Shown: positions 18,191-34,870, counted from the stretch's first letter. The stretch: 64,000 nucleotides of DNA from Candidatus Enterousia sp. (GCA_045546075.1 JAZQCF010000004.1:21157-85156); one strand, 5' to 3'. The notes: generated from the letters alone by a model not told the origin. Numbers and translations are program-made.

Positions 18191-18251
18191 ATTGCCATTA
18201 TGTTTTTTTGTGCTATATTTATGACACGCATTTGAATCAAAGGATTAGACG

Positions 18252-19013
18252 ATGACAAAAAATTCTGTAAACAGAAATTTATTAAACAATATAGTTTTTT
18301 ATACCGTCTTGGTTGGATTGGTTGGAACGGGAACCGCAATTATTGCACATCATATCGGCCGCAAAAATGCGCGTCGCGAAATTATCAAACTGTCCAATGA
18401 AATTAAACAGGTCAAAGATGATAAATTTACATATATGACCAGTGCGCCCGAATTTGCGCAAAACAGAAAAATGAAAAAAACCATTGATTCATTGAAAACA
18501 CGTAATTCAAAAATTGTTCAAAATATAACAAATGAATACTTTGCCAATGTCAACAAAACATATACATTGGGGCGTTTCTTTACCGATGCACAAATCAAAA
18601 AAATGAACCAGGTTGCAAATTTTGTCGGCCCGCTGTTTAATTCAAAAACATCGATTGCGGAATTTGAAGAAACTTTGACCATAATGGACATCCCGGCGGA
18701 TAAATTTATGCAATTTGGCGTAATAATTGATGGTGGATATATTCATATGTTCCGCGATGAAAAACGTCAAAGACTATTTGAAGAATATCTGGACGCGGTT
18801 GAAATGGCATTTTCGCACGATGGAACGGATGCACCAAACCCGAACCTGGTCCGTGGTAACGCCGAATATATCAAAAATCAACATAAAATTGATTCATTGC
18901 AACGATGCATTTCTGGGAATTCCTTTATTATTGGCAATACGGTTATGGCACTTGAACGCCGGCACGACAGTTTACGCGCCGAACTGGCAAAAAATCGCGA
19001 AAAACTTAGATAA
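18252..19013 (+). CDS. membrane-anchored hypothetical protein
   Basis: N-terminal TM VFYTVLVGLVGTGTAIIA, then a coiled-coil region. Confidence 0.45.
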   Translation: MTKNSVNRNLLNNIVFYTVLVGLVGTGTAIIAHHIGRKNARREIIKLSNEIKQVKDDKFTYMTSAPEFAQNRKMKKTIDSLKTRNSKIVQNITNEYFANVNKTYTLGRFFTDAQIKKMNQVANFVGPLFNSKTSIAEFEETLTIMDIPADKFMQFGVIIDGGYIHMFRDEKRQRLFEEYLDAVEMAFSHDGTDAPNPNLVRGNAEYIKNQHKIDSLQRCISGNSFIIGNTVMALERRHDSLRAELAKNREKLR

Positions 19014-19040
19014 GGCTTGTGTGTTTTTATTCCAAGGCAA

Positions 19041-19084
19041 AAATAAAACGGCCCGCATTCTTTTATGCGGGCTTAAAAAATTTT
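19041..19084. terminator. bidirectional terminator hairpin
   Basis: GCCCGCATTCTTTTATGCGGGC flanked by A/T runs. Confidence 0.5.
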
Positions 19085-19430
19085 CTGGCGGAAGCACGGG
19101 ATTTGTTCGCATATGCTCACCACACGTAAGATTCAAACTGCGTGCTGCGCACTTGTTTTCATCAACTATCGTGTGAACCCTTTTGCAACCCTGTTGCAAA
19201 GCGGGCACATTCACCCTTCGTCCACCACAAATTTACCCGCCACTTTGGGCGGGTTAATTTCTGGCGGAGTTCTAATAAATGACGGTATTGGATATCCAAT
19301 TTACAGGGATTTGCAGGGAATTTTTTGACATAAATCCCACTGTTTTCATGAGAAACGCAAGGGACACAAATCAAAAATCGCACAAAACAACAGGGAATTA
19401 TGGGTATAAAAAACCAAAATAATCAGAATA

Positions 19431-21131
19431 TTATGAACTTAATGTTCCGTTTTTAGCTTTCTCTACCAAATTTTCTACAAATACTTTTATCTTGCTTTGA
19501 TCGTGATACGTATAGTTGTCACTTATATCCCTTTTTAATTGTTCTATATCATCCTTGGACATATTTGCTGTATTTTCAGAAAAAGATTTTGTTGGGTCGC
19601 AATTTTCTTTGTGCGGCATTATATCATCTGGTTCTAAGATGTCTTCAAAAACACACCTTTGGGGTAAAATGTTCAATATATCTTTAACAGAAAACAAATT
19701 AGTGCATTCAATTCCTAATTCTTTAGCAACTTCTTGAATTTGTTTTTTTATTTTATTTCCACCAGTATCTTCATCGTGTATAACCGTTAAATTAAGGTTG
19801 TCTATCGATGAATATCTGTACATTTTTGGCATTTCAGAACCGTTACAACTTTGAATGAAAATATCCCTTATGTTCATGCTTTCTAGAACTTTATTTAATA
19901 TAATTTTATCCGTGTTACCTTCAACTAATACTATGTATTGTGGCAAAAGTTCTTTCCAATAATTTAATCCGAAACCGACTCTCATAACTTCATCACTCAA
20001 TATATACGAGTCTGATTTTGCTCGTTCAATCGTTGTTTTACCTTTCTTTTTAGAAACTACAATATGACTTTCAGGGGTTGTCTTATCTATCATAAAAGGC
20101 GAATGAGTGGCGCATATGATAACATTGTTTTTACTCATACCAATAAGACGATCCCTTAAAAATTGGATTCCACTAGGATGTAAATGAACATCCGGTTCGT
20201 CTAATAAAATAATACTGTTTTCAATATCTTTTGTGGCTTCCTCACAAGATACAGATAATATAAACGAAATAAATTGTCTAAAGCCATCGCTTCTATCTTT
20301 TGTATCAAATAATATACTCTCACGGTCTTTGTCTTCAATCAAACACGTACAAATACCAGTCTGTTCTATATCAATATTTATTTTTACATTAGCCTCGAAA
20401 GATTTCCAAACGGCTTTAAAATGTTTATTAATTGCCGACTCTAATTGTCTGCTTATAGTTTTTCGATTGCTAGCATCTTTCAAATCACCCAAGTTATAAA
20501 TATCTAACTTTGCCAACTTAAAAATATTTTCTATTGGTTTGTTTTTTAACGTTTTATTTATTATTTGATTCAAATCAATTGATGATGGCAACAAAAATTC
20601 TTCACTATAATCCCAATATATAATTTTGGGTTTATTTGGGGCTATAACTTCGTTCCACAAGAAATTATCATGTTCATCTTTTATTTGTTCTAATGTTGTA
20701 TCACCGGTATACCAAGTACTATTAAGATAATATCTATTATTTTTGATACCAGTTGACGACAACTCAAAATTATATATTATGTGCTTGATATCATCAAATT
20801 TTTTTATACTGAGCCCCTTTTGTTCGGCAAATATTTGAGATTTTTCTTGTAATAATTTATTAGTAGCTTTATCTATTTCAAAATATATTTTGACTTCTAC
20901 AATATTATCTTCTGCATTATTAACATTCGGCTTATACATGGTTTTTGTATACTTAAGTTCTGATGAGTATACATTGTTGATAGCCTGTAAAATTGAACTT
21001 TTCCCAGATTCGTTCAAGCCGATAAGAAGATTAAACGCTCGTTCTGATTTATCTTTGTTTTGATAAAATCTATCAATAGTTAAATTTTCTATACTTCTAA
21101 AATTATGAATAGTAATTTTTTCTAATTTCAT
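19431..21131 (-). CDS. OLD-family ATP-dependent endonuclease (ABC-type ATPase + C-terminal TOPRIM)
   Basis: Walker A LIGLNESGKSSIL. Walker B/H-loop LLDEPDVHLHP. TOPRIM motif YIVLVEGNTDKIIL. Start at MKLEKITIHNFRSI (ATG 21131, RBS AAGAGG). The AT-rich composition differs from the flanking chromosome. Confidence 0.75.
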   Translation of the reverse strand: MKLEKITIHNFRSIENLTIDRFYQNKDKSERAFNLLIGLNESGKSSILQAINNVYSSELKYTKTMYKPNVNNAEDNIVEVKIYFEIDKATNKLLQEKSQIFAEQKGLSIKKFDDIKHIIYNFELSSTGIKNNRYYLNSTWYTGDTTLEQIKDEHDNFLWNEVIAPNKPKIIYWDYSEEFLLPSSIDLNQIINKTLKNKPIENIFKLAKLDIYNLGDLKDASNRKTISRQLESAINKHFKAVWKSFEANVKINIDIEQTGICTCLIEDKDRESILFDTKDRSDGFRQFISFILSVSCEEATKDIENSIILLDEPDVHLHPSGIQFLRDRLIGMSKNNVIICATHSPFMIDKTTPESHIVVSKKKGKTTIERAKSDSYILSDEVMRVGFGLNYWKELLPQYIVLVEGNTDKIILNKVLESMNIRDIFIQSCNGSEMPKMYRYSSIDNLNLTVIHDEDTGGNKIKKQIQEVAKELGIECTNLFSVKDILNILPQRCVFEDILEPDDIMPHKENCDPTKSFSENTANMSKDDIEQLKRDISDNYTYHDQSKIKVFVENLVEKAKNGTLSS

Positions 21132-21317
21132 TTGTGACCTCTTATTATCATGTAACATAATATTTTTTGCCTAAAAAATCCAGTTTTTTATTGGTAAATT
21201 GAAATAGTTATATATTTTTTCACAAAATCAAAAAAATTTTTCAAGGCAGGTGGTCGCAACAATGTATATTATTAAGAATAAGGGTATTCCTTATTCGTTA
21301 AACATAAGGAGTATACT

Positions 21318-22583
21318 ATGCTTTTAACAATTGTTGATAAAAACATTAATCAAATTAAACCGTACCAAAACAACCCCAAACTTCATAGCAAACACCAGAT
21401 TAAACAGATTGCGGATTCTATTAAAGAATTTGGATTTGTGAACCCTGTGTTGTTGGATGAAAATGGGGAAATCATAGCGGGGCATGGACGATATTTGGCT
21501 GCAAAACAGTTAAATATTGGAACCATCCCTACAATAACACTATCTCATTTAAATGATGAGCAGAAACGTCTGTATCGTATTGCTGATAACAAACTGACCG
21601 AATTAGGCAAATGGGATGTGTCTTTGTTGCAAATGGAATTTAAAGAACTGGAAAATTTAAATCTGGATCTAGAAATTACAGGGTTTGAAACCGAAGAAAT
21701 AGATAATTTTATTATAAATAAGTCTGGTCCTACAAATCCGAAAGACGAATATATCCCAGAATTATCAACCAACGATTATCAATGCAAATTTGGCGATATA
21801 TGGCGACTGGGGCGACATTTCTTAATTTGTGGTGATGCATTAAAAGCGGAAACATATGCAAATTTAATGGAAAACAATCGTGCCAAAATGATTTTAACAG
21901 ATCCACCATATAATGTCCGTGTAAAAGATATTGGTTCAAGCGGTAAAATTAAGCATGATGAATTTGCGATGGCATCTGGCGAGATGTCATCTGATGAATT
22001 CATCACGTTTTTAAATACATTTATGAAACATGCAAAAGAATATTCCATCGATGGTTCTTTGCATTACTTGTTTATGGATTGGCGACATGGAATAGAAATT
22101 GGCCTGGCCGCATCAACCGTTTATGAAGAATTAAAAAACATCTGCGTTTGGGTCAAAAATAATGGTGGTATGGGCAGCCTGTATCGTTCACAGCACGAAT
22201 TGTGCTTTATATACAAAAACGGCAACGGCCCACATACGAATAATATAAATCTGGGGGCGCATGGGCGATATCGCACAAATGTTTGGGAATACGCAGGTGC
22301 CAATGGTTCCGCAGATGGTAAAGAAAATTTAAAATTACATCCAACGGTTAAGCCCGTTGCAATGTTAAAAGATGCAATTCTGGATGTCACAAAACGTGGC
22401 GATATTGTGTTGGATTGCTTCTTGGGTTCTGGTTCAACCTTAATCGCATGCGAACAAACAGGTCGCACATGTTATGGCATCGAAATAGAACCAAAATATT
22501 GTGATGTGACAATTAAACGTTATGAAGAACTAACCGGTGAAAAAGCCATAAAAATAGGAGGTGCAGATGACAGGATATGCTAA
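21318..22583 (+). CDS. ParB-like nuclease domain fused to a DNA methyltransferase (N6-adenine/N4-cytosine, DPPY)
   Basis: N-terminal ParB/Srx-like region (NPVLLDENGEIIAGHGR), then ILTDPPYNV and a C-terminal SAM-binding region. This architecture is common in phage and GTA regions next to terminase. Confidence 0.8.
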   Translation: MLLTIVDKNINQIKPYQNNPKLHSKHQIKQIADSIKEFGFVNPVLLDENGEIIAGHGRYLAAKQLNIGTIPTITLSHLNDEQKRLYRIADNKLTELGKWDVSLLQMEFKELENLNLDLEITGFETEEIDNFIINKSGPTNPKDEYIPELSTNDYQCKFGDIWRLGRHFLICGDALKAETYANLMENNRAKMILTDPPYNVRVKDIGSSGKIKHDEFAMASGEMSSDEFITFLNTFMKHAKEYSIDGSLHYLFMDWRHGIEIGLAASTVYEELKNICVWVKNNGGMGSLYRSQHELCFIYKNGNGPHTNNINLGAHGRYRTNVWEYAGANGSADGKENLKLHPTVKPVAMLKDAILDVTKRGDIVLDCFLGSGSTLIACEQTGRTCYGIEIEPKYCDVTIKRYEELTGEKAIKIGGADDRIC

Positions 22584-22941
22584 CCCACCAAAAGAAACAC
22601 AATTCAAAAAAGGACAATCTGGTAATCCCAAAGGACGTCCCAAGGACGATAAAAATTATTTGGCTCTTGCAAACAGAGAGTTATCACAAAAGGTTTCAAT
22701 TATGGAAAAAGGTCGACGTAAAACACTTAGCAAAAAGGAGGTGTTTGTCAAAACGACGATAAACAAGGGTATTGCTGGCGATAAAAAATTTACAAATATT
22801 GCATATATAATGATGCAGGATGCCGAAAGATATAATGAACGCAAAAAACACGATGAAAAAGAACAATCTAAAATAAACCAGAACATTATTGAAAATTTCC
22901 GAAAACGGGTTTTAGAAGAGAATAAAGAGGTGGAAGAATGA
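22561..22941 (+). CDS. phage-associated small basic protein (DUF5681-like, putative terminase small subunit)
   Basis: FKKGQSGNPKGRPKD motif, found in small proteins encoded immediately upstream of phage/GTA large terminases. Overlaps the neighbouring genes. Confidence 0.45.
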   Translation: MQMTGYANPPKETQFKKGQSGNPKGRPKDDKNYLALANRELSQKVSIMEKGRRKTLSKKEVFVKTTINKGIAGDKKFTNIAYIMMQDAERYNERKKHDEKEQSKINQNIIENFRKRVLEENKEVEE

Positions 22942-24383
22942 CACAAAATCTGGCTAATGCTTTAATAAAGGAAGATTTTTACAGTTTTGTGCAACGGGCT
23001 TATTTCGAAACAAGCGGTGGACAAATACTGATTCCAAATTGGCACATTGAAATATTGTGTGATCGGCTGGAAAAAGCCCGCAAAGGCGAAATAAAACGTC
23101 TTATTATAAATGTTCCGCCACGCAGTTTAAAATCACAAATTGTAAATGTTGCATTTACCGCTTGGGTATTAGGTCATAATCCAACAGAAAAAATTGTTAG
23201 TGCATCGTATTCTGCAGAATTAGCGGAAACTTTTGCACGCGATTGCAAACGTATTATGCAATCTGAGTGGTATAAACAACTATTTCCAAAAAGTGAGATT
23301 TCAAATGACCAATCGTCAGCCTATGATTTTAAAACAATTTCACGCGGTGGACGCTTTGCCGCATCCGTTGAAGGATCTTTAACGGGTCGCGGCGGCAATA
23401 TAATAATCATCGACGACCCGATAAAAACAACAGATATGGCAAATGAGAATGCCCTAAATAAAGTACAAGAATGGTATACAGGTACACTGTTAAGCCGTTT
23501 AGATAATCAAGAAGACGGGGTGATTATTTTGATAATGCAACGTGTTCATGAAAACGATTTAACAGGTTATCTGTTAGATAAAGAGTCTGATAAATGGGAG
23601 CATATAGTTATGCCTATGATTGCAACCGAAGAAGAACAATGGGAAGTTAAGAATAAAACTTTTATAAGGCATAAAGGCGATGTATTAAACAAGCAATATA
23701 TCAGTTTTGAAAAATGTAACGAATTAAAAACAGAATTAGGGGAATATGTATGGAATGCTCAGTATCAACAGGAGCCATGCCCAATCAGTGGTGGTATAGT
23801 CAAAGAAGAATGGATGCAATATTATCCAAACCAACGTTTGAATCCTGATGAAGTTTATAAAATATTATTAAGTTGGGATACAGCTAATAAAACAGGAGAA
23901 AACAATGCGTATTCTGCTTGTTCTGTCGTAGCAGTAATGAGAAACAGGACATTTTATTTGTTACAAGTTGCGCGTGCCCGACTGGATATGACAAAACTTT
24001 TAGAATCTGTTTTGCAAGCATACAATTCTGTGGTTCAAGAGTCTGGCTTTTTCAGAATCAAACCAGTATTACTAATAGAAGATGCTGCGAGCGGAACTCC
24101 GCTTATAAATTTGTTAAGAAATTTAAAAGATATATATGGCCGCGTATTAAATATCGAGGCAATAAAGCCTAAAGGGGATAAAATTGACCGACTTTATGGT
24201 ATAACACCATATATTGAAAATGGACAATTGTTGTTTCCGCCAGATGGTGTGGAAGGGAAAGAACGATGGTGGCCAGATTTTAAAAAAGAATTGTTAAGCT
24301 TTCCAAATTCAAAATATAAAGATCAAGTTGATTCTTTGACACAGGCTATTTCATATGGTCAAGAATTATTGGCATACCAATAA
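22938..24383 (+). CDS. phage terminase large subunit
   Basis: INVPPRSLKSQIVNVAFTAWVLGHNP (Walker A-like of Terminase_6 type), IIIIDDPIK (Walker B), and a C-terminal RNase-H-like nuclease region. Confidence 0.8.
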   Translation: MTQNLANALIKEDFYSFVQRAYFETSGGQILIPNWHIEILCDRLEKARKGEIKRLIINVPPRSLKSQIVNVAFTAWVLGHNPTEKIVSASYSAELAETFARDCKRIMQSEWYKQLFPKSEISNDQSSAYDFKTISRGGRFAASVEGSLTGRGGNIIIIDDPIKTTDMANENALNKVQEWYTGTLLSRLDNQEDGVIILIMQRVHENDLTGYLLDKESDKWEHIVMPMIATEEEQWEVKNKTFIRHKGDVLNKQYISFEKCNELKTELGEYVWNAQYQQEPCPISGGIVKEEWMQYYPNQRLNPDEVYKILLSWDTANKTGENNAYSACSVVAVMRNRTFYLLQVARARLDMTKLLESVLQAYNSVVQESGFFRIKPVLLIEDAASGTPLINLLRNLKDIYGRVLNIEAIKPKGDKIDRLYGITPYIENGQLLFPPDGVEGKERWWPDFKKELLSFPNSKYKDQVDSLTQAISYGQELLAYQ

Positions 24384-24410
24384 AATAAATACTGGGTAAA
24401 ATCTCGGTAT

Positions 24411-25049
24411 TTATTTTGGCATATGTTTATGTATACATGCGTTATGCAAATCACTAATCAAATTCTTGCCAGTATAAGATTTGGCGAACCGTTTAAATTT
24501 GTCTATTTGTTTAATAAAATCATCACATGATATAAAATATGAATAATCATGTTTAGAAAAAGCATCAAATACAATCATATTTATTTCTTTGTTGTGCTTT
24601 TTTATCCACTTATATACTGTTTCAAAATCTACATATAAAAACATATGATTTGTGGCCGCGCCGTGTATTTCGCGTATTGATAGAAAACCACTAAAAATCC
24701 TGGTTTTATCTGCTAGTTTTATTTGTGGAACAATATTTACATTTTTCATGTATAAAAAACTGTCATTTTTACAATCTGGCAATTTCATAATACTCGTATC
24801 GTTTTTACCAGGCGGACAAATATAAATAGGTATCAGTATTTTTGATCGCAACAACGTCGCTATGAAATATGCCAAACTTTCATTATCTTTGAACACGTTA
24901 TATTCTGCTAATGCACTGGCCAATGTCCCATTAAAATAATCGGTATCATTCTCTTGGTGAATAATACAGTAATCAAATTCATATTCGAAATCTTTAAAAT
25001 GGTTCTCGTCCAATACATATTCTGTTAAAGTTTTTCGTATGTTTGTCAT
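24411..25049 (-). CDS. hypothetical protein (island operon gene 4)
   Basis: AT-rich ORF, last gene of the minus-strand run 26703 to 24411. Confidence 0.45.
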   Translation of the reverse strand: MTNIRKTLTEYVLDENHFKDFEYEFDYCIIHQENDTDYFNGTLASALAEYNVFKDNESLAYFIATLLRSKILIPIYICPPGKNDTSIMKLPDCKNDSFLYMKNVNIVPQIKLADKTRIFSGFLSIREIHGAATNHMFLYVDFETVYKWIKKHNKEINMIVFDAFSKHDYSYFISCDDFIKQIDKFKRFAKSYTGKNLISDLHNACIHKHMPK

Positions 25050-25050
25050 A

Positions 25051-25548
25051 TTATTTTTCCAAATCTATGCCGCATTCTGTATAGCACTTTTTCCAATCAA
25101 ATCGTGCTGATTTATATTTTTTGTTTAATTTTGCATTTTCTTCTTTGGTAATCCATGCGGTTTTCAAATTATTCAAAACATATTTAACACTTTTATCATC
25201 ATCCATAAAAGCATGAAATAATTCAGATAACGGCACACAGTGTTCCAATATTAAATCTTTCAATTTCGGGAAATCTTTTTGAATTGTGCGTTTTTTGCCG
25301 ACCAACAAATTATGTAAATCCCCATTTATACCAGATTTGCACCAAATATTTTGCGCCGATACCGATATAAAATCTGCCGGTCTCGATTCAGAAATCACAT
25401 ACAATATATTGCGAAATGATAATTTTATAATTTTCTTTGCGTTATCACTTGCTTTACGATATGTGTCACGCAGATTATTCAATAATAAATCTGTATCTTT
25501 ATCAGTAAATTTATTCGTCGGTTTGCTTATTGTTATTTGTGGTTTCAT
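25051..25548 (-). CDS. hypothetical protein (island operon gene 3)
   Basis: ORF. 1-nt gap to the downstream gene and 38-nt overlap with the upstream gene, suggesting translational coupling. Confidence 0.45.
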   Translation of the reverse strand: MKPQITISKPTNKFTDKDTDLLLNNLRDTYRKASDNAKKIIKLSFRNILYVISESRPADFISVSAQNIWCKSGINGDLHNLLVGKKRTIQKDFPKLKDLILEHCVPLSELFHAFMDDDKSVKYVLNNLKTAWITKEENAKLNKKYKSARFDWKKCYTECGIDLEK

Positions 25549-26023
25549 TGTTCTCTGCCGCTTGTTTTTCTTTCCATTTTTTATATTCTGGATTTGGAAT
25601 CTGGGATTCTATCATCTTTAACTTTCGAATAGTTTTCTTTGTGCCTATCGTATTGTAATAAGTATAAGTTCCGTCTAATACCATACAATATGCCCCAAAT
25701 GTAACCGTATATCCATCATACAATTTTTTTGATTCTGTTTTCCAGTCTTTTTCGCCTATAACCTGTCGCATATCGGTTGCAAAAACTTCGCCACCAAACA
25801 TCTGTTGCCGTCGTGCCTTGCATGAACGTGCCACATCTGTGTCGCCATCTGCCGGATGACAATAATATAATTGAATCAAAGAATACTTGTCATTCACTTG
25901 AAATACTTTTAATTCATGACTTGGAAAGCAATCTGGATTGCGTATGGTTTTTGGAGGAACCGGTTGTGTTGTCAAACCAACACAAGAACACAATAACAAA
26001 CCTAATAAAATTACTTTCTTCAT
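25511..26023 (-). CDS. lipoprotein, hypothetical (island operon gene 2)
   Basis: MKKVILLGLLLCSCVG lipobox. Confidence 0.5.
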   Translation of the reverse strand: MKKVILLGLLLCSCVGLTTQPVPPKTIRNPDCFPSHELKVFQVNDKYSLIQLYYCHPADGDTDVARSCKARRQQMFGGEVFATDMRQVIGEKDWKTESKKLYDGYTVTFGAYCMVLDGTYTYYNTIGTKKTIRKLKMIESQIPNPEYKKWKEKQAAENNETTNNNKQTDE

Positions 26024-26025
26024 AT

Positions 26026-26703
26026 TTAATCCTTTTTGTTTTTGGGTGGAATTTCTATAAACAATGATTTGAACTGTCCGTATTTATCACCAGTATCGCA
26101 AAAATCTTGCCATTGAAAATTATAGGCATTTTGCATAAACAAATCTGGTTTATCTTTAAGATGTTTGGAATTGGTGTCATTTTTTACATTCCACTTATGC
26201 CATCCAGACATTTTTTCGCCTTCGGTTGTCCTGAATGCATATGCCATAGAATTTGGGTTGCTTTTTGCACACCAAAACGATTTGTTGTTCGAAATAAAAA
26301 TGCATACGCCTGATTTTGCGTATCCTTTATCAATTAACCATTCAATGCGGTTTATATCTGCCCATACATGATAACAATTATCATCATTTCCCTTATGATC
26401 CGCCAACAGGTCTGATACAGGTATTTTTGTATTTTCGTAAAGTTTTTCTGATTTTATTGGTCTGGTTTTATATTTCAATTCTATGGGGTAAAAATCTCCG
26501 TCTTTGATGACCATTATATCTATGTGAATAATGCGTTGTTCGCCTGGCTTTTTAATTGGAAATTCCAAAATTATTTGAGCCGTATCATTGAATATCTTGT
26601 GTAATTCTATTGCTAATGAATGTTGAAAATCTGCTTCCGAGACAAAGAACCTTTGTCTACTTATGCTAGAAAACGCTTCTTTAATTCCGCTGATTACATT
26701 CAT
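26026..26703 (-). CDS. PD-(D/E)xK nuclease-fold protein (island operon gene 1)
   Basis: RIIHIDIMVIKDGDFYPIELKYK gives a D ... E-x-K motif with the surrounding beta-strand pattern. Confidence 0.45.
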   Translation of the reverse strand: MNVISGIKEAFSSISRQRFFVSEADFQHSLAIELHKIFNDTAQIILEFPIKKPGEQRIIHIDIMVIKDGDFYPIELKYKTRPIKSEKLYENTKIPVSDLLADHKGNDDNCYHVWADINRIEWLIDKGYAKSGVCIFISNNKSFWCAKSNPNSMAYAFRTTEGEKMSGWHKWNVKNDTNSKHLKDKPDLFMQNAYNFQWQDFCDTGDKYGQFKSLFIEIPPKNKKD

Positions 26704-26994
26704 CTTTATCCCCGCGTAAAATGCTGACCGCCAATTAAGAATTGGCGGCCGGGGAGTTCCTAATCAGTTTATCATTGATTCCGTGGCTTTCGGGTTGCCC
26801 CTATTGTATGGCACACGACTCCCCGACCATAACGTCAGGGACATTACGGTGCAAAAAGCACCGAAACATCAGTAATAACGATGCTTTCGCACCGGATAAA
26901 CGGGCTAGGAAAGCCCCGAACCCAACTCTCATTGGATTCATCAAAAACATACCTTAAAACAATATAAAAATCAAGTTATTATAAAAGAATAAAA
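26704..26994 (-). other. GC-rich, highly structured non-coding element between two minus-strand genes; candidate ncRNA or leader
   Basis: Contrasts with the AT-rich island. Hairpins seen: CCGCCAATT-AAG-AATTGGCGG, GTGC-AAAAA-GCAC, and CATC-AGTAATAAC-GATG nested in CGAAA/CTTTCG. A long-range pair CGGGGAGT / ACTCCCCG is present. Confidence 0.35.
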
Positions 26995-28437
26995 CTAACA
27001 TTTTGTATATTTCACATGTTTATAAGAAGAACGCCTTTGAATAAAATTATGTATATATTTATCAATTTTTTCCTCTGGTATAAGATATATCTCCATCATT
27101 AGCTCCTTTATAAAAGCACCAGCTAATATACCATAGACGTTTTGTAATATTAATTCATTATTTGCTAGTGCATAGTATTTGCCATTGTTTTTGTTATATG
27201 CTTTCGGATGTACTATTGCATTACGTATTTGACACAAAGCATTACCCAGATTTTTATCTTGTTTTTGCAAATACTTCAACATGCGTTTTATTTTTGTTTT
27301 CCACTGGGTTGATAAACTTTCTAAAACGAAACTATTAACATCTCCGTTTTTAGATTTTCCGCGTAAATTTTGTAATGTTTCAACATAAGAAATCAACATC
27401 ACATAATCTTTTTGATTAATTAGTGATTGACCACCATGCAAAATATCTTCTGCCCCTGTAATCAAATTATGCCAACCAGGTTTATCGTAAAGACGCAACC
27501 ATTTGTTGATAGATATTGTTAATAAATTATCATCTTTATTTATCAAAAAATCTTTTATGGTTATTGGCATCAAATCGTGTGCTAATTTTCCATGTTTATG
27601 CCCAAGAGAAGGGAGCAAATCTCTACAAAGCATAGGGTGTGCTTCATGATATATTTTATTATTTTTGTTATGTTTTACAACACTAATCCAGCTAAAATTT
27701 ATGTTTATTTTACAATCTAATAAAATTTCTAAAAATAAGCGCAATTTGTGTTCGAGCATTCTATAAATAGAGAATTTATTATAACCAGATTTTATATGAA
27801 TAGCGATATTCGTATGAAGACGTTTTAATAAGTTATATTTGTTTTTATCTAAGAGTGGTTGTATATGCTTTTTAAATGAATTCATAATAGTCTTAGATTT
27901 TGCTGAAAAAGAACAAATTACATCATCAAAATCATCAGCAGAGTGAATAGTGTGAGCGGTTGCGTTCACTATTTCAAGCGAGATTTTTGTTTTACCTATT
28001 ACAACCGGCATTTGTGCAAATTTCACCATAGAACTAATGTTTTTATTTGTAGATAAAAATTGATAGAAATTATCGTCATAATCTACATATAAACCACTTA
28101 TCACAAAATTTTTCAGCAACCCTCCGAAAACAACTGCTCGTGCTGAGCCAGTAACAAATTCTGAGAAAACAATATTCATCGTTATGCCTGAGCATTGTAA
28201 AAATACTTCTAACAATGTAATAGGTATAGTTTGTTCATCATAACGAATGATGCCATGCATTACGAGTATAGATTTATTAGTCGGGTGTTTTGAATTAGTA
28301 TTAAATATTGAAATTTTAATACCATTCTCTGGAGAATAACTCAATTTACCAGAAAATTCCTTGTCCGGTTTATTCGGCATCCAAAAAGTGCCTATCCATT
28401 CATAATTTTTACGATGATCTAAATCCAAAGTCGCCAT
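26995..28437 (-). CDS. hypothetical 480-aa protein with a C-terminal HEPN-like Rx4H motif (possible abortive-infection-type RNase)
   Basis: NALCQIRNAIVHPK fits HEPN R-x4-H. Lies between a restriction endonuclease and a nuclease operon in an acquired island. Domain assignment was not verified. Confidence 0.45.
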   Translation of the reverse strand: MATLDLDHRKNYEWIGTFWMPNKPDKEFSGKLSYSPENGIKISIFNTNSKHPTNKSILVMHGIIRYDEQTIPITLLEVFLQCSGITMNIVFSEFVTGSARAVVFGGLLKNFVISGLYVDYDDNFYQFLSTNKNISSMVKFAQMPVVIGKTKISLEIVNATAHTIHSADDFDDVICSFSAKSKTIMNSFKKHIQPLLDKNKYNLLKRLHTNIAIHIKSGYNKFSIYRMLEHKLRLFLEILLDCKININFSWISVVKHNKNNKIYHEAHPMLCRDLLPSLGHKHGKLAHDLMPITIKDFLINKDDNLLTISINKWLRLYDKPGWHNLITGAEDILHGGQSLINQKDYVMLISYVETLQNLRGKSKNGDVNSFVLESLSTQWKTKIKRMLKYLQKQDKNLGNALCQIRNAIVHPKAYNKNNGKYYALANNELILQNVYGILAGAFIKELMMEIYLIPEEKIDKYIHNFIQRRSSYKHVKYTKC

Positions 28438-28449
28438 ATTTTTTAATAA

Positions 28450-28992
28450 CTATTTATCAGTTGGAACCGGTAACCCAAATTTCTGTAACGGTATATATTC
28501 AAAATAATAAGAACAGCCGACCGAAACTATATAATCTAAGACATCTTGATAGCATGGTTGTTTGAACCAGTCACTTAGCAAATAAATATATTCTACTTCC
28601 ATATTCAGTTGAGCCAGTAATTTCTTATATTGTTTTTTCTTAAAATCACAAGTTTGCAATTTTTCGTCTACTGACCCAGCAACACGTTGAAATTTGCATT
28701 CAATTACAAAAAATGTGTTGTTTATAACAACATAAATAGAATCATCTGGTAATAATTTCTTAGATAATATCGATTTCCAATCAATCCCACGGTATTCTAA
28801 AAATTTATATAAAGCAGATTTTTTGAATATAGAGGCAACTTCTTCGCCTTTATATAAAACAGAAACCCACCCGCGTCTATCATCTTTGCAATCATATCCT
28901 GGTTGAGAACACAAAAAAGTGCGTAAATCGGTCTTCCCTTCAAAAACTAAACCGGTTTTAGTATTTGCACCACCAATTCCATTCGCTTTCAT
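28450..28992 (-). CDS. putative type II restriction endonuclease (PD-(D/E)xK)
   Basis: LLPDDSIYVVINNTFFVIECKFQ gives PD ... E-C-K. Immediately downstream of two DNA methyltransferases on the same strand with overlapping stop/start. Confidence 0.5.
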   Translation of the reverse strand: MKANGIGGANTKTGLVFEGKTDLRTFLCSQPGYDCKDDRRGWVSVLYKGEEVASIFKKSALYKFLEYRGIDWKSILSKKLLPDDSIYVVINNTFFVIECKFQRVAGSVDEKLQTCDFKKKQYKKLLAQLNMEVEYIYLLSDWFKQPCYQDVLDYIVSVGCSYYFEYIPLQKFGLPVPTDK

Positions 28993-29774
28993 TTTTTATC
29001 CTTTTTTTCAGATATATCATATAATCTTTTTTCAGCCAATTCAACAAATTGTGGCTCTTGGTCTATACCCACAAACAGACGGCCATGTTTTAATGCTGCA
29101 ACACCTGTCGTTCCGCTACCCATAAATGGATCTAAAATCAAATCGCCAGCATTTGTAGATGCCAAAATAATGCGTTCCAATAATTCCACCGGTTTTTGAG
29201 TTGGGTGTTTGCCAAATTTCTTTTCTTCCTTGGTCGGGGTTCCGATAGCCCAAACGCTTCGCATCTGGCAACCTGGCTTTTTGATAAAGTCCTTTGGGAA
29301 ATCACCGTTCTTCATAGCCTCATAATTAAATGTATGTTTCGCCTTTTTATTTTTGCGCGCCCAGAGCAGTGTTTCATGACTTGCTGTAAAGTACCGACAG
29401 GACATATTCGGACTAGCATTTGGCTTAAACCAAGTTATGTCGTTCAAAATATGGAAACCAAGCAATTGCATAGCAAAACCGCATGAATATATGCTATGGT
29501 ATGTACCACTAACCCACAAAGTGCCATTGGGTTTCAACACACGATGACAAGCACAGAGCCATTTTTTATGAAATTCAAAATCATCACTAAGACCATGAGA
29601 TTTGTCCCAATCGCCTTTGTTCACAGACACAACGCAACCATTTTGACATGTGATACCACCATTAGAAAGCATGTACGGCGGGTCTGCAAATATCATATCA
29701 AATGTATTTTCCGGAAGTTCAAGCAACTTTTCAAGGCAATCTGCACAATAAAGACGGTACTGTTTCTTAGTCAT
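28989..29774 (-). CDS. beta-class N6-adenine DNA methyltransferase (DpnA/MboIB-like)
   Basis: N-terminal FADPPY (motif IV), then a C-terminal HPTQKP...DPFMGSGTT (motif I). This is beta-class order. Confidence 0.8.
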   Translation of the reverse strand: MTKKQYRLYCADCLEKLLELPENTFDMIFADPPYMLSNGGITCQNGCVVSVNKGDWDKSHGLSDDFEFHKKWLCACHRVLKPNGTLWVSGTYHSIYSCGFAMQLLGFHILNDITWFKPNASPNMSCRYFTASHETLLWARKNKKAKHTFNYEAMKNGDFPKDFIKKPGCQMRSVWAIGTPTKEEKKFGKHPTQKPVELLERIILASTNAGDLILDPFMGSGTTGVAALKHGRLFVGIDQEPQFVELAEKRLYDISEKKDKK

Positions 29775-30699
29775 AATTTGTAATCAATAATTCACGAATT
29801 GCATCACGACCATCGGCCTTAGAATTTATAAGACGTTTAGCCAAAATACGGTTAATTTTATAATCTTTGTACAAATCATCAAAGAACGAGTCATCAATAT
29901 AATTGGTTGGATCCGAATTACTCAACATTTGTAAAGTGCCCATCTGATGACATGTGTCAAAGACCTGTTTAAGACGTTCTTGTTCTGCATCATCAAAATC
30001 ACCAACTGCATAAGAATTAAAAGATGACGTTTCACGAATTGGACGATATGGGGGGTCATAATAAATGAATGTGTCGGCCTTTACATAATCTGGTGTAGCA
30101 CCAAAGTCTGCTTGTATAATCGTAGCAATTTGCAAAGCTTCAGACACGTTGCGTAAGTTTTCTTCATCCAAGATACGCGGGTTGGTATATTTGCCCATTG
30201 GAACATTGAATTTGTTTTTGCTGTTTACACGGAACAAACCGTTAAAGCATGTCCGGTTCAAGAATATCGTTAGGGCAGCACGGCGAACAAAACTTGTGCG
30301 GTATACATTGGCATCAACATTTTTATCACAGTCGTTATATTCATCGCGTCTAGCATAATAATATGCTTTTGTGTCATCTGTATGTCTGTATTCGGTTTGA
30401 ATTTTGGTCAGTTCAACAATCAAACTTTCCACATCGCGTTTTATAACGTTGTAAAGAATCACCAATTCTGGGTTGATATCGAATAAAAATGCTTCCTGGA
30501 TTTGATATCTATTGTATATATCAAAAAAGACGGCACCACCACCAACGAAAGGTTCTATATAACGTTTGATGCCGCCCATCTTTAGTTTTAGTGGAAGTTT
30601 TTGTTCAATTTGTTCCAGCAACTGTCCCTTGCCACCGGCCCACTTCAATATCGGGTGGCATTCTGTATAATCTGGCAATCTGGCTGGTATTGCTATCAA
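29767..30699 (-). CDS. Dam-family (alpha-class) N6-adenine DNA methyltransferase
   Basis: KWAGGKGQLL, EPFVGGGAVFFD (FxGxG) and YYDPPYRP, in the order typical of Dam/DpnM. Confidence 0.8.
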   Translation of the reverse strand: MIAIPARLPDYTECHPILKWAGGKGQLLEQIEQKLPLKLKMGGIKRYIEPFVGGGAVFFDIYNRYQIQEAFLFDINPELVILYNVIKRDVESLIVELTKIQTEYRHTDDTKAYYYARRDEYNDCDKNVDANVYRTSFVRRAALTIFLNRTCFNGLFRVNSKNKFNVPMGKYTNPRILDEENLRNVSEALQIATIIQADFGATPDYVKADTFIYYDPPYRPIRETSSFNSYAVGDFDDAEQERLKQVFDTCHQMGTLQMLSNSDPTNYIDDSFFDDLYKDYKINRILAKRLINSKADGRDAIRELLITNYD

Positions 30700-30757
30700 A
30701 ACTCATCCTTTCCTTGCTACTATATTAGAAGAAAATAGCAGATAAAATCAAGGTGTT

Positions 30758-30985
30758 TTATAATATTTTACGTGGTGCGTTTTTCCACAATGCTGCCATT
30801 TGAAATAGTTTGCGCTGGATGCGTCGAAGTAGCCATGCTTGGCGACAAGTTAAATTGCCATCATTGGTTCTGCGGATTGCGGCTTCTAATTCCTTTAATG
30901 ACCGACATGCCGCGAAATAGAGCATAATAAAATCTGTTTTGTTACTGGGGTTGATATCATCAAAATGCTTATACTTCATAGACAA
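30758..30985 (-). CDS. small hypothetical protein
   Basis: 75-aa ORF at the head of the minus-strand methylase/restriction gene train. Could be a regulator. Confidence 0.3.
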   Translation of the reverse strand: MSMKYKHFDDINPSNKTDFIMLYFAACRSLKELEAAIRRTNDGNLTCRQAWLLRRIQRKLFQMAALWKNAPRKIL

Positions 30986-31110
30986 TCCTTTTTAAGGTTG
31001 TCGTATTGATGATTATATTCCCGCGAAAGTCCAGTCATTTTATTATCTTTATTAACTTGACTTCTGGCTGCTTTAGAGCGGTAATTGCGTGACGTTATAA
31101 AGGAGCCGAT

Positions 31111-31551
31111 ATGTCATATAAAGACAACCTGCCTAAGACGATGGATGAGTTAAAAGCACTATCTTTTGATGAACGAGCGCGATTATGGGCAAAATACTCA
31201 CAATATCCATTCAAACGGCAAATGCGGTCGCTTTGGTATTACATTCAATGTGACAGGTTAAATCTTCGAATTGAACATAAATATTTGGTAAAAATTCAAA
31301 AATATAAGGATAATCCAGAACAGTGTTTAGACCATGCGTGCCCAAACAAATACAACTTTGTCCCAGGTACAATTTTAACAAGATATTTCAAAGGGATAAA
31401 ATACACCATCTTAGTCAACGACGACGGTAGTTTTTCTTATAATGGCGATAAATATTCAACTTTATCGGCGATAGCAACCAAGATAGCAGGTATGAAAATG
31501 TCTGGTAATTTCTTCTTTGGAATAAACAAAAGGTATAAACATGACAATTAG
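31111..31551 (+). CDS. DUF2924-family protein (serine-recombinase accessory protein)
   Basis: GTILTRYFKGIKYTILVNDDGSFSYNGDKYSTLSAIATKIAGMKMSGNFFFGI matches the conserved DUF2924 C-terminal block. Sits immediately 5' of the recombinase as in known pairs. Confidence 0.6.
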   Translation: MSYKDNLPKTMDELKALSFDERARLWAKYSQYPFKRQMRSLWYYIQCDRLNLRIEHKYLVKIQKYKDNPEQCLDHACPNKYNFVPGTILTRYFKGIKYTILVNDDGSFSYNGDKYSTLSAIATKIAGMKMSGNFFFGINKRYKHDN

Positions 31552-33162
31552 GTGTGCTATTTATACCCGTAAATCAACCGAACATGGATTGGAACAGGAG
31601 TTTAATTCTCTGCAAAACCAAGAAGAGTCGTGCAAGGCATATATAGCATCACAATCGTTTAATGGTTGGCAATACTATAAGACTTACAGTGATGCGGCGA
31701 TTTCTGGCGGAACTATGGAACGACCGGCATTAAAGCAAATGCTGGATGATATGGCACATGGGTTAGTAAATACTGTGGTGGTATACAAGGTTGATCGATT
31801 ATCGCGTTCAATCTTAGATTTTCACAATATGATGAAATATTTTGAAAAATACGGTGCCAATTTTGTGTCTATTACCCAGTCATTTGATACCAGTACATCT
31901 ATGGGTAAATTGACATTAAATATGCTACTATCATTCGCACAGTTCGAACGTGAAGTATCAAGTGAACGTGTGCGTGATAAAATCCGTGCATCAAAGGCTA
32001 AGGGGTTATGGATGGGTGGTGCCCCACGTTTGGGGTATGATCTAATTAATAAAAAGTTGGTAGTAAGCCCAACCGAAGCAGAACAAGTCCGACACCTGTT
32101 TGAAAAATATCTGGAACTGCAATCTGTGAATGATTTAACTGAATACGCACGGCAAAATGGTATGTTTGGCAAACGATGGGAGACCGCAAAACGGCAAATT
32201 CGTGGTGGAAACCCCATATCTAAAATGAGCATGCATCGCATTCTGCGGGATAAAGTTTACATCGGTCAAATCGAAAACAAAAAAGAAGGTACTTTTGCCA
32301 AAGGTGAACACGAACCGATTATATCAAACGATTTGTTTAATCGTGTCCAAGTTGCGTTGGCTAATAACACAAACAACAAATCCCAAAGCACACATGCGTC
32401 GAATATATTGACCGGAAAATTATTTAATCACAATGGCACAAAGTTCATCAACCAAATGACCAGCGGTAAAGGCAAAAGAAAAATTCATTACTATGCAACC
32501 AAGGGATTTTATTTGACTGCCGCGTGTGTGGATGAGATTGTTATAAAAACAATAACCAATTTTCTGAACAGTGATATGTCTGATCTGCCCATCAATTTGG
32601 CCACCGCGTATTAAAACGAATTGATGTAACAAATATGAATTTCGCAGAAAAACGCAACCTAATTCAATCATTGGTTGAAAAAATTGTGTATTCGCAAGAA
32701 CAACTGATTTATACACTGACTATAGATGCGCAAAAATTACAGCCGTTTATCAAGGAGCATTATGTAAATCAAAATGTTGAGCCCATGGAATATATAATTG
32801 GCGACAACAGCATAACAATCACGGAAAAAGTATTCTTACGCAAATACGTCAACACGGTATACGACCGTGGTAAAAACGGTGTATTAAATGTCACCGACAA
32901 TAATCATTTAATTTTGAAAGCATTTGCAACGGCATGGAAATATAGGGAATTATACGAACAAGATGGCAATGTAGACAATGTGATACGTTCTGTTCGCACA
33001 TCACCAAGATTATTTTATAAATATTTATCTCTCTCGTATCTGAGTCCGTCAATCGTAAATAAACTATTAAGTGGCAAAATTAATATGGCAGTTAGAGATA
33101 TTTTGGATAAAGCATCAAGAAGTGATGACTTTGAGTATCAAGTCAAACTGTTTAATCTATAA
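31541..33162 (+). pseudogene. large serine recombinase interrupted by a stop/frameshift; ORF 31541..32614 carries the resolvase and recombinase domains, ORF 32635..33162 the C-terminal part
   Basis: N-terminal IYTRKST (catalytic Ser) and VYKVDRLSRS. The second ORF begins with KRNLIQSLVEKIVY, the conserved C-terminal helix motif of large serine recombinases. The two ORFs are in different frames, 20 bp apart. Confidence 0.5.
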
Positions 33163-33367
33163 ACACATTGATTTTTTATCTGTTTTATGTTATATTGTGT
33201 ATATGCCTGTTGGAAGGCTAGCCCGTTCGTGTAAAGATTTCATCATCCAACAAATAAAATAATATAAACCTCCGAGCTTATTATCTAAGCCAAGAGACTA
33301 CGAACGCAAAATCAATATTAGATAATGAACTTGGGCAACTCCGCAAATGCGGTAAAGGATTTATATT

Positions 33368-34048
33368 ATGAAAAATATAGACTACTTTAAATTACAAGCA
33401 AAAAATCTGCTTAAAGACTACCAAACACGCTATCTTTCTGAAGATGGTAATATTTATGAATACGAACCAAAGTTTTTTGATATCGTAGGTATATTCCTTG
33501 AATATGAAATAATGGACGATGATAAAAACTTTGAATTTAAATTAGGCAATGCCCAGCATTTAATCGCGCAAATGGCAGGGTTTGCCAGCTGGAAAGATTT
33601 AACAACAGCACCAGAAACAGATCAATTAAAAGCCCGTAAATCACTAGAAAGAAGTATTCATAATGAATATGGATATACAAGTTTTATATCGCATAATTTT
33701 ACACCTGATGGTCGTGAAATAACAGAATATTCACACGAACCATTGGATAGTGATGTGCCTTATCATGAAGAACTGTCTGGACAGGATTGGCAAGATGGTA
33801 TAGATGAATGCCGGCAAAACGGTATGGGGTTTGAACCAGACGAAATCGTTGAATGCTTACATTGTGGAAATCGGTTTCCATTTAAGGAAGTAAAGGTTAG
33901 ACGATTGAAGTCCGAGTACAACAATGGCAAAGAAGATGATTTTAAAGAAATTGTATGCAAACACTATCCAGAATGTAATGGTAATTTACTAGATTTAATA
34001 CCGGTGGAAATGCTTGATGCGAAAGGAGGTGATGAAAATGAGGAATAA
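33368..34048 (+). CDS. acidic hypothetical protein with C-terminal Cys4 (CxxC...CxxxxC) zinc-ribbon-like motif
   Basis: ECLHCGNRF...CKHYPECNG. Overlaps the HNH gene start. Confidence 0.4.
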   Translation: MKNIDYFKLQAKNLLKDYQTRYLSEDGNIYEYEPKFFDIVGIFLEYEIMDDDKNFEFKLGNAQHLIAQMAGFASWKDLTTAPETDQLKARKSLERSIHNEYGYTSFISHNFTPDGREITEYSHEPLDSDVPYHEELSGQDWQDGIDECRQNGMGFEPDEIVECLHCGNRFPFKEVKVRRLKSEYNNGKEDDFKEIVCKHYPECNGNLLDLIPVEMLDAKGGDENEE

Positions 34049-34331
34049 ATTTGCATCTTATTCTCGCAGTACGTCAAAAACATATACTAATGCCAATGGA
34101 TATAGAGTGTACAAAGATTCAGGGCAGCTAGTTCATCGTCATATGGCAGAAATAAAACTTGGTAGACCTTTACAATCTGGTGAAGTTGTGCATCATATAA
34201 ACCGAAACAAACAAGACAATCGTCCATCAAATTTGTATGTGTTCCATGACCAACAAGCACATTGGGCGGCTCATAAACAGGACGCCCAAAATTATGGCAA
34301 AGATTATAGTTTTAAAGGTAAAAATCATTAA
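34014..34331 (+). CDS. HNH endonuclease
   Basis: HRHMAEIKLGR...VVHHINRNKQDNRPSNL is an HNH motif. Confidence 0.65.
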   Translation: MMRKEVMKMRNKFASYSRSTSKTYTNANGYRVYKDSGQLVHRHMAEIKLGRPLQSGEVVHHINRNKQDNRPSNLYVFHDQQAHWAAHKQDAQNYGKDYSFKGKNH

Positions 34332-34440
34332 AAGTGCCTCAACGAAAATAGCCAAAGTATATCAATGCTTGCTATTTGGGCTAGTTTGATAAATTTGGCG
34401 ATATACATTGGAAATATCGTGGGTAAAAATCGCCAGAAAT

Positions 34441-34489
34441 GGGGCGAAAAAAACATCCCGTGGGATTACCACGGGATGTTCAATATTAC
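34441..34489 (-). terminator. terminator hairpin downstream of tRNA-Ser
   Basis: Minus strand AACATCCCGTGG-TAAT-CCCACGGGATGTT followed by TTTTTT. Confidence 0.45.
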
Positions 34490-34583
34490 TGGCGGATGGT
34501 GAGGGATTTGAACCCCCGAAGGTCTTATTTCATACCTTGTCCGATTTCAAGTCGGATGCATTCAACCGCTCTGCCAACCATCC
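34490..34583 (-). tRNA. tRNA-Ser (anticodon TGA), type II with a long variable arm
   Basis: Acceptor GGATGGT/ACCATCC. Anticodon stem TCCGA/TCGGA with loop CTTGAAA. Long extra arm. T-loop TTCAAAT. 3' GCCA is encoded. Confidence 0.85.
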
Positions 34584-34870
34584 GGATTTCGCGGCTCTGT
34601 TAAAACTGCGGTCATAATGATATAGTATTTTTTTCCAAAACGCAAATAAAATACACATAAAAAACACTTGTATCACATACAAATTTTATTTAATATTAAA
34701 CCGAACCGAATGGGAATTTGGTTCGGGGCTGTCGAAAGCCTGCTACACTCGGCACAGATATGTCGTAATCCATAGAATTCACATATTTTGTGCCGTACTA
34801 AATAATTCCCCGACATTGGTCGGGGTGCTGGTGATGTATATAAGGTAAGATCATTGGAATCATTAGTGTA

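Follow-up and report, generated by a model that had tools for sequence, protein, structure and literature searches.

Proteins in which a mostly β-stranded N-terminal domain is fused to a C-terminal HEPN domain were predicted in 2013 by Anantharaman et al., who described the 'ApeA/BMEI1217' HEPN family, recorded it as embedded in restriction-modification (R-M) operons, and defined 'ApeA-NTD1', an N-terminal domain fused to the Apea HEPN (~300 amino acids (aa), mostly β strands, conserved aromatic residues) (PMC3710099). Proteins of this kind were catalogued in 2024 as PDC-S58, one of 145 untested candidates of PADLOC selected by 'guilt-by-embedding' in defence systems (bioRxiv 10.1101/2024.01.29.577857). 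A 480-aa protein encoded in a 64,000-nucleotide (nt) stretch of DNA from Candidatus Enterousia sp., a gut or rumen alphaproteobacterium (GCA_045546075.1 JAZQCF010000004.1:21157-85156; this whole stretch is referred to as the window), was the focus of this study, and is a divergent new member of this kind rather than a new kind of system.

The ApeA proteins of Gao et al. (2020) have been studied by experiment: they are ~580-600 aa long, mainly helical, and composed of three domains, form decameric or dodecameric rings, and cleave tRNA anticodon loops when switched on via a ligand pocket. The ligands of Ec2ApeA are 5'-phosphorylated deoxydinucleotides, released by DNA degradation, and ApeA can also cleave RNA-phage genomes without cell killing (bioRxiv 2026.01.26.701840, 2026.03.20.713152).

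The best explanation, to which we assign a probability of roughly three in four, is that the 480-aa protein is a stand-alone, latent HEPN ribonuclease (RNase) acting as a defence effector, with a β-rich ApeA_NTD1 domain and an Apea-like HEPN domain, and that its gene is the last one of an R-M operon. The gene and the parts of its product are located as follows.

26995..28437, minus strand: coding sequence of the 480-aa protein with ApeA_NTD1 and HEPN-like domains (list of open reading frames (ORFs) and translation)
27625..28404, minus strand: N-terminal β-rich region, aa 12-271, presumed sensor or regulatory domain (Pfam ApeA_NTD1 at aa 13-123; AlphaFold2 (AF2))
27031..27525, minus strand: C-terminal all-helical domain, aa 305-469, putative Apea-like HEPN RNase (AF2 and Pfam matches below cut-off)
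27208..27225, minus strand: R405-N-A-I-V-H410, predicted catalytic Rx4H motif (translation; conservation in 41/41 relatives; position at a helix end)

As a sequence-only reading of the window had claimed, a 480-aa ORF running from ATG to stop fills exactly 26995-28437 on the minus strand; the same interval read on the plus strand gives a translation riddled with stops. Homologs share the start and length, and the ratio of nonsynonymous to synonymous divergence (dN/dS) against four orthologous loci was 0.17-0.19, indicating a functional gene under purifying selection. The octapeptide IRNAIVHP, which had been the reason for suspecting a HEPN RNase, is indeed encoded in the C-terminal region at 27205-27228 (minus strand; aa 404-411), with R405 and H410 as its key residues. 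By itself, the R-x4-H motif is weak evidence and does not go beyond chance, because one was present in 44% of residue shuffles of the protein and in 14 of the 59 ORFs in the window that are 150 aa or longer. There is also a second one (R469-x4-H474), which was not kept as a motif in relatives: R469 was near-invariant in the 12 closest relatives, and H474 fell outside the conserved positions.

IRNAIVHP was raised above chance by its conservation. In an alignment of 41 sequences of relatives, reaching down to 16% identity, R405 and H410 were kept in all 41, and only one other column, W313, was invariant. Loss of the motif in homologs, which the sequence-only reading had named as evidence against itself, clearly did not occur. 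Position 406, directly after the arginine, was occupied by N in 27, D in 4, S in 3, and other residues in 7 relatives (N or D in 31/41); I408 and P411 were each kept in 39/41, while the acidic residue E353, inside an L-I-S-x-I-E-T helix, was found in 33/41 (80%). W14, G16, F18, W19, G30, Y34, and G39 in the N-terminal region were each conserved in at least 90% of the alignment. The published hallmarks of HEPN are an Rx4-6H motif with a polar residue (N, D, or H) after the arginine and a conserved acidic residue upstream, in a layout in which the motif ends helix 3 of a four-helix core (PMC3710099). The family has the Rx4-6H motif and the polar residue after R by which the superfamily is recognized, and, as far as primary structure can tell, the conserved R405 and H410, the polar position 406, and the upstream E353 are these hallmarks.

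The sequence-only reading had also held that the protein contains no other recognizable domain, and this did not stand: aa 13-123 matched positions 1-99 of the 271-position Pfam profile ApeA_NTD1 (PF18862) with 34.9 bits (E 1.5e-8), above the curated gathering cut-off of 25.5 bits. This match covered the first third of the profile only, and ApeA_NTD1 was matched by 38 of the 41 relatives. When the C-terminal 185 aa were scanned alone, the best Pfam match was HEPN_Apea (PF18739; 17.2 bits, E 0.0072), followed by HEPN_Swt1 (E 0.01). The commonest Pfam families in the C-termini of 33 relatives were HEPN_Apea (6), HEPN_Swt1 (5), and the HEPN family pEK499_p136 (4), and the best relative reached E 1.8e-5 with HEPN_Apea; we estimate its score, by extrapolation from the ratio of E-values, at ~26 bits, above the gathering cut-off of 24.4 bits. 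Both halves of the protein agree with the assignment to HEPN, the best C-terminal matches being HEPN families and the N-terminus being the domain described as fused to the Apea HEPN.

An AF2 run with the family alignment gave confident predictions, namely, a full-length model with a predicted local distance difference test score (pLDDT) of 86.7 and a predicted template modelling (TM) score of 0.84, and a model of the C-terminal domain alone with a pLDDT of 90.7. In the full-length model, aa 12-271 were mostly strands, which fits the 2013 account of ApeA-NTD1, and aa 305-469 were all helices. The Rx4H motif closed helix 397-409 at its C-terminus, directly ahead of a break that leads into helix 411-425, and this placement is in keeping with the published description of HEPN. 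E353 lay in helix 342-358, separated from the motif helix by a helical insert (aa 363-394). Part of the β domain showed a weak resemblance to Hcp-like proteins in Foldseek (E 0.05, TM ~0.45), which was not relied on; the full-length model had no significant match in BFVD.

The family has few members, nearly all of them from metagenomes. When 1.84 billion representative proteins were searched exhaustively with a profile, only 116 relatives were obtained at E <= 0.001, 28 of which reached E <= 1e-30 and were mostly 470-490 aa long with end-to-end matches; a word-indexed homolog search gave only 4-5 relatives, even with a profile as the query. Nine of the ten clusters that were looked up consisted of metagenome or sequencing-run assemblies only, and none had an informative name. 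No relatives were found in plasmid and phage collections by tblastn, or in IMG/VR by pattern scan. The clade of the 480-aa protein itself belongs to uncultured gut and rumen Alphaproteobacteria, and with this gene a defence gene is now described for Ca. Enterousia, a lineage of gut and rumen that has received little study.

The genes directly upstream are those of a type II R-M system.

29767..30699, minus strand: D12-class (Dam-like) N6-adenine methyltransferase, first gene of the operon (PF02086, E 2.6e-59; PADLOC MTase_II, E 3.6e-90)
28989..29774, minus strand: N6_N4 DNA methyltransferase (PF01555, E 8.7e-63; PADLOC MTase_II, E 1.6e-97)
28450..28992, minus strand: 180-aa PD-(D/E)XK restriction endonuclease, directly upstream of the 480-aa gene (PF20472 PDDEXK_11, 24.5 bits; cut-off 23.7)

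The one-directional gene train with an R-M system proposed earlier was thus confirmed, all four genes being on the minus strand, with 12 nt between the stop of the nuclease and the start of the 480-aa gene. Placement of the gene between a restriction endonuclease and a 'nuclease operon' was correct for the upstream side; the label of the downstream genes was unconfirmed, as they showed no significant family match. On the best explanation, the 480-aa gene would be the co-transcribed last gene of a type II R-M operon with two methylases and one nuclease. The same three R-M genes preceded the HEPN gene in four other Enterousia genomes, giving co-occurrence in 5/5 Enterousia loci.

The synonymous divergence (dS) was 0.4-1.7 for the R-M genes and of the same order for the HEPN gene (0.27-0.71), in contrast to only 0.13-0.15 for the downstream block (o225), which suggests that the four genes move and are inherited together, in a single cassette that has a history of its own. 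In the sister loci (L008, L009, L010, and L012), the R-M proteins were 93-98% identical and the HEPN protein only 76-90%. This was caused by a roughly tenfold higher dN/dS, dS being similar: 0.17-0.19 for the HEPN gene versus 0.01-0.04 for the R-M enzymes, evenly along the length and in both domains.

The defence context, which had been claimed for the window, recurred in the loci of relatives. The relative at L015 and those at seven metagenome loci (L025-L031), with 29-31% identity, were each encoded by the gene at the end of a type III R-M operon; at L016, the relative followed a type ISP fusion enzyme by 10 nt; and at L034, it overlapped a gene that follows HsdM-HsdS (type I). In a clade with 51-53% identity, the relative followed a 645-aa KAP NTPase, and at L017, an IetA-like AAA ATPase. 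Other relatives were found in a conjugative element, in an integrase islet, or without recognizable neighbours.

Some of these loci had features of their own. The KAP NTPase was always 28-40 nt upstream of the HEPN gene (L001:6036-9425, L004:6021-9431, L023, and L024) and its N-terminus matched PADLOC PDC-S49; the two may constitute a two-gene system. At L017 (positions 1-2274), the IetA-like ATPase (PADLOC IetA, E 1.6e-40) was followed 3 nt later by the ApeA_NTD1-HEPN relative, which occupies the usual place of the protease IetS, and the pair may represent a variant of Iet whose effector is an RNase. The type III operons of L026-L031 had two to four further genes, all unannotated, nested between Res and Mod, and a 435-aa gene stood between Mod and the HEPN gene in some of them, making these operons heavily 'embedded'.

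Embedding of a HEPN RNase gene in R-M operons is known from PrrC and RloC, in which it is a backup to restriction. These proteins have an N-terminal ABC ATPase and are associated with type I systems, whereas no ATPase family was found in the 480-aa protein by a Pfam scan even at E <= 10 and its relatives accompany four R-M types. This likeness suggests a more specific version of our explanation, in which the protein is a PrrC-like guard that the adjoining R-M system keeps inactive, or that watches over this system, and is triggered only by a phage disabling restriction or by DNA breakdown products from restriction or phage nucleases. The precedent of PrrC and the activation of Ec2ApeA by deoxydinucleotides from DNA degradation favour it, as do the inheritance of the four genes as a cassette (dS matching that of the R-M genes and not that of the downstream block) and the position of the gene, last and on the same strand with gaps of 0-15 nt or overlaps, in type II (the window), type III (L015, L025-L031), type ISP (L016), and type I (L034) systems. 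We nevertheless consider it rather unlikely: four mechanistically different R-M partners argue against a specific protein latch like that of PrrC and EcoprrI, relatives elsewhere are found behind ATPases or alone, the sensor domain has no sequence relationship with the ligand pocket of Ec2ApeA, and the 4 kb examined to either side of the same methylase and nuclease pair in Neisseria contain no such gene.

This pair, in Neisseria gonorrhoeae (L022; NZ_CP119140.1 6933-15467), consists of a homologous N6_N4 methylase and a small nuclease (61% and 53% identity, respectively), and the nuclease is split by a frameshift. PLSDB lists NZ_CP119140.1 (2.17 Mb) as a 'plasmid'; the record is evidently a mislabelled chromosome.

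A broader and speculative possibility, on which we would place low odds, is that ApeA_NTD1-HEPN is a general 'restriction back-up' module, in which the β-rich sensor detects a signal that type I, II, III, and ISP systems share and unleashes the HEPN RNase. The signal may be DNA cleavage products or the loss of restriction through phage anti-restriction proteins, and the β-rich sensor may have a fold with no relation to that of the helical sensor in the ApeA proteins tested so far. If true, the logic of PrrC would be extended to all R-M types via a new sensing domain. Because the gene recurs behind four R-M types, coupling to R-M is a testable question, and the cassette, being a compact and natural set of four genes, is suited to asking whether the RNase acts independently of, or coupled to, the R-M system.

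Returning to the explanation as a latent HEPN effector, steps beyond the HEPN domain, the conserved catalytic motif, and the defence context were modelled on PrrC, RloC, HepT, Cas13, and tested ApeA. By analogy with all catalytically characterized HEPN proteins, two copies would dimerize via their HEPN domains, and the two sets of R405, N406, and H410 would form one composite, metal-independent RNase site. The ApeA_NTD1 domain, as the presumed infection sensor or regulator, would keep this site silent until infection is detected; the activated site would then cut either phage RNA or the anticodon loops of host tRNA and so halt phage multiplication. The gene would be transcribed together with the type II R-M operon that it ends, and the protein would therefore act as a second layer behind DNA restriction. 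The inference of a HEPN defence effector in the sequence-only reading was supported and essentially right; the abortive-infection mode that it attached to the protein is an unproven assumption. The outcome may be abortive or not, as both modes are found in the ApeA literature.

Among described proteins, the closest likeness was to ApeA_NTD1 plus Apea-like HEPN proteins (PF18862 and PF18739), with which the 480-aa protein shares the mostly β N-terminus of roughly 300 aa with its conserved aromatic residues, the C-terminal Rx4H HEPN, and the embedding in R-M operons. Unlike the others, the clade of the 480-aa protein is very divergent, with only the first ~110 aa matching the 271-position profile and the HEPN part scoring below the cut-off, and its hosts are Alphaproteobacteria and not epsilonproteobacteria. 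PDC-S58 is similarly a single-gene candidate (~450-460 aa), and embedding, here in R-M operons, is the principle by which the candidates of that catalogue were selected. The PDC-S58 model PDLC05048 matched 23 of the 41 relatives (best E 1.1e-19), and the 480-aa protein itself matched PDC-S58 models only partially, at aa 11-80 (27.2 bits) and aa 11-121 (25.1 bits), such that PADLOC would probably not call it as PDC-S58.

The relationship to the ApeA of Gao et al. was assessed with full-length Ec1ApeA (WP_000706972.1; L013:3001-4806) and Ec2ApeA (L014:3001-4752), which were recovered from E. coli genomes. In common with these, the 480-aa protein is a single protein with an N-terminal part for (presumed) sensing and a C-terminal HEPN motif of the form R-N-x3-H, and the motif helices are in register; it differs in its length and its β-rich N-terminal half, as opposed to ~580-600 aa and a mainly helical structure. 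The PADLOC ApeA model PDLC02157 gave 1386 bits with Ec1ApeA and 45 bits with Ec2ApeA, and no match with the 480-aa protein or any of the 41 relatives; NCBIfam, including its ApeA naming model, gave no match with the 480-aa protein at E <= 1. Conversely, Ec1ApeA and Ec2ApeA matched neither Pfam ApeA_NTD1 nor HEPN_Apea (E <= 0.1-1). Filing the protein as ApeA (Gao 2020) was rejected because the PADLOC, NCBIfam, and hhalign (see below) tests all failed; judged by these comparisons, it is ApeA-like in outline and not a demonstrable member of the experimentally defined family. By analogy, the protein and tested ApeA probably share a working logic in which an infection signal activates a latent RNase. 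The names are a trap in this respect: the Pfam 'ApeA' domains are not those of the tested ApeA proteins, and the Pfam name invites unsupported transfer of annotation, because the sensing domains of the tested proteins in the two 2026 studies share no detectable similarity with ApeA_NTD1.

Two other HEPN-based arrangements found no counterpart. No nucleotidyltransferase match, as expected for an antitoxin of the HepT-MntA type, was found among the neighbours (methylases, PD-(D/E)XK nuclease, and unannotated ORFs), and Pfam Abi_2 (AbiD/AbiF) was absent from the matches at E <= 10 and from the family-wide matches.

Several results weigh against the protein being a HEPN defence effector. Its own HEPN_Apea score was below the Pfam gathering cut-off (17.2 versus 24.4 bits). 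Foldseek, by which alone the fold was compared, returned no HEPN match and nothing at E <= 0.001 when the PDB was searched with the AF2 models of the whole protein and of the C-terminal domain, and profile searches against PDB sequences returned nothing relevant. With hhalign, the 41-sequence profile aligned with 18 canonical ApeA proteins only over the RNxxxH helix and the next helix, at E 0.13, 0.054, and 0.094 (also given as P 0.05-0.13). Furthermore, some family members lack a recognizable defence neighbour, and no experiment on any ApeA_NTD1 protein was found in the literature. The failure to obtain a structural match to a HEPN RNase would also be expected if the helical domain were non-catalytic, that is, if the protein were an R-M accessory or regulator whose R/H pair binds nucleotide or nucleic acid without RNA cleavage, and some HEPN domains are indeed binding-only (PMC3710099). 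Such domains typically lose Rx4-6H (PMC3710099), whereas the motif is invariant here and has a polar residue after R; we therefore regard a non-catalytic role as very improbable and retain the reading as a latent RNase.

The HEPN gene lies in a low-GC island (~18200-34600), the GC content of which was 0.30-0.38 versus ~0.40-0.48 in most of the remaining window. The other features of the island are listed below.

19431-21158, minus strand: OLD-family ATPase-Toprim nuclease
21318-22583: ParB-N6_N4 methylase, in one module with a DUF5681-like small protein and the terminase-large-like gene
22938-24383: terminase-large-like gene
24411-26703, minus strand: four downstream ORFs (225, 170, 165, and 212 aa), no function assigned
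26704-26994 (core ~26740-26925), minus strand: GC-rich structured element with two GNRA-type loops, in the 291-nt gap after the HEPN gene
31541-32614: serine recombinase, ~1.9 kb from tRNA-Ser
34490-34583: tRNA-Ser gene

The island can be read as an integrated element resembling phage satellites, in which one slot holds defence cargo; no convincing att-like direct repeats bounding it were found. The mobile surroundings raise the alternative that the protein is an addiction or stabilization toxin of the island, an active HEPN RNase serving post-segregational killing or competition between elements. The low-GC island with its serine recombinase, ParB-methylase, and terminase-like genes, as well as the relatives in a conjugative element and an integrase islet, are compatible with this alternative, and many HEPN proteins are toxins (PMC3710099). 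On the other hand, the adjacent genes include no candidate antitoxin, of the MNT type or otherwise, the adjoining structured RNA belongs to the backbone of the island and is absent from the loci of distant relatives, and the consistent neighbours are defence genes, making the role of an addiction toxin improbable in comparison with that of a defence effector. The structured RNA was separately considered as a cognate RNA antitoxin and rejected, since, in related islands, it is located at the opposite side of the cargo and is directed away from the gene; its absence from distant relatives' loci also ruled it out.

None of the four downstream ORFs had a Pfam or PHROG match; NCBIfam matches were weak and non-significant, and there was only one weak PADLOC match. 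The 170-aa ORF begins with a lipoprotein-like signal.

The structured element is preceded by a conserved promoter-like box (TTGATT-N17-TATGTT) and ends with a GGCCGCC...GGCGGTC hairpin. Its match to Rfam sRNA-Xcc1 was below threshold (41.4 bits, cut-off 53; E 7.8e-6). In related islands, it was 74-97% identical and can sit across the defence cargo, before different genes; RNAalifold on 7 copies gave 58 pairs, 19 of which had compensatory changes. The low dS of the downstream block (o225) implies a recombination boundary inside this intergenic element, which looks like a backbone small RNA or leader marking the edge of a variable cargo slot.
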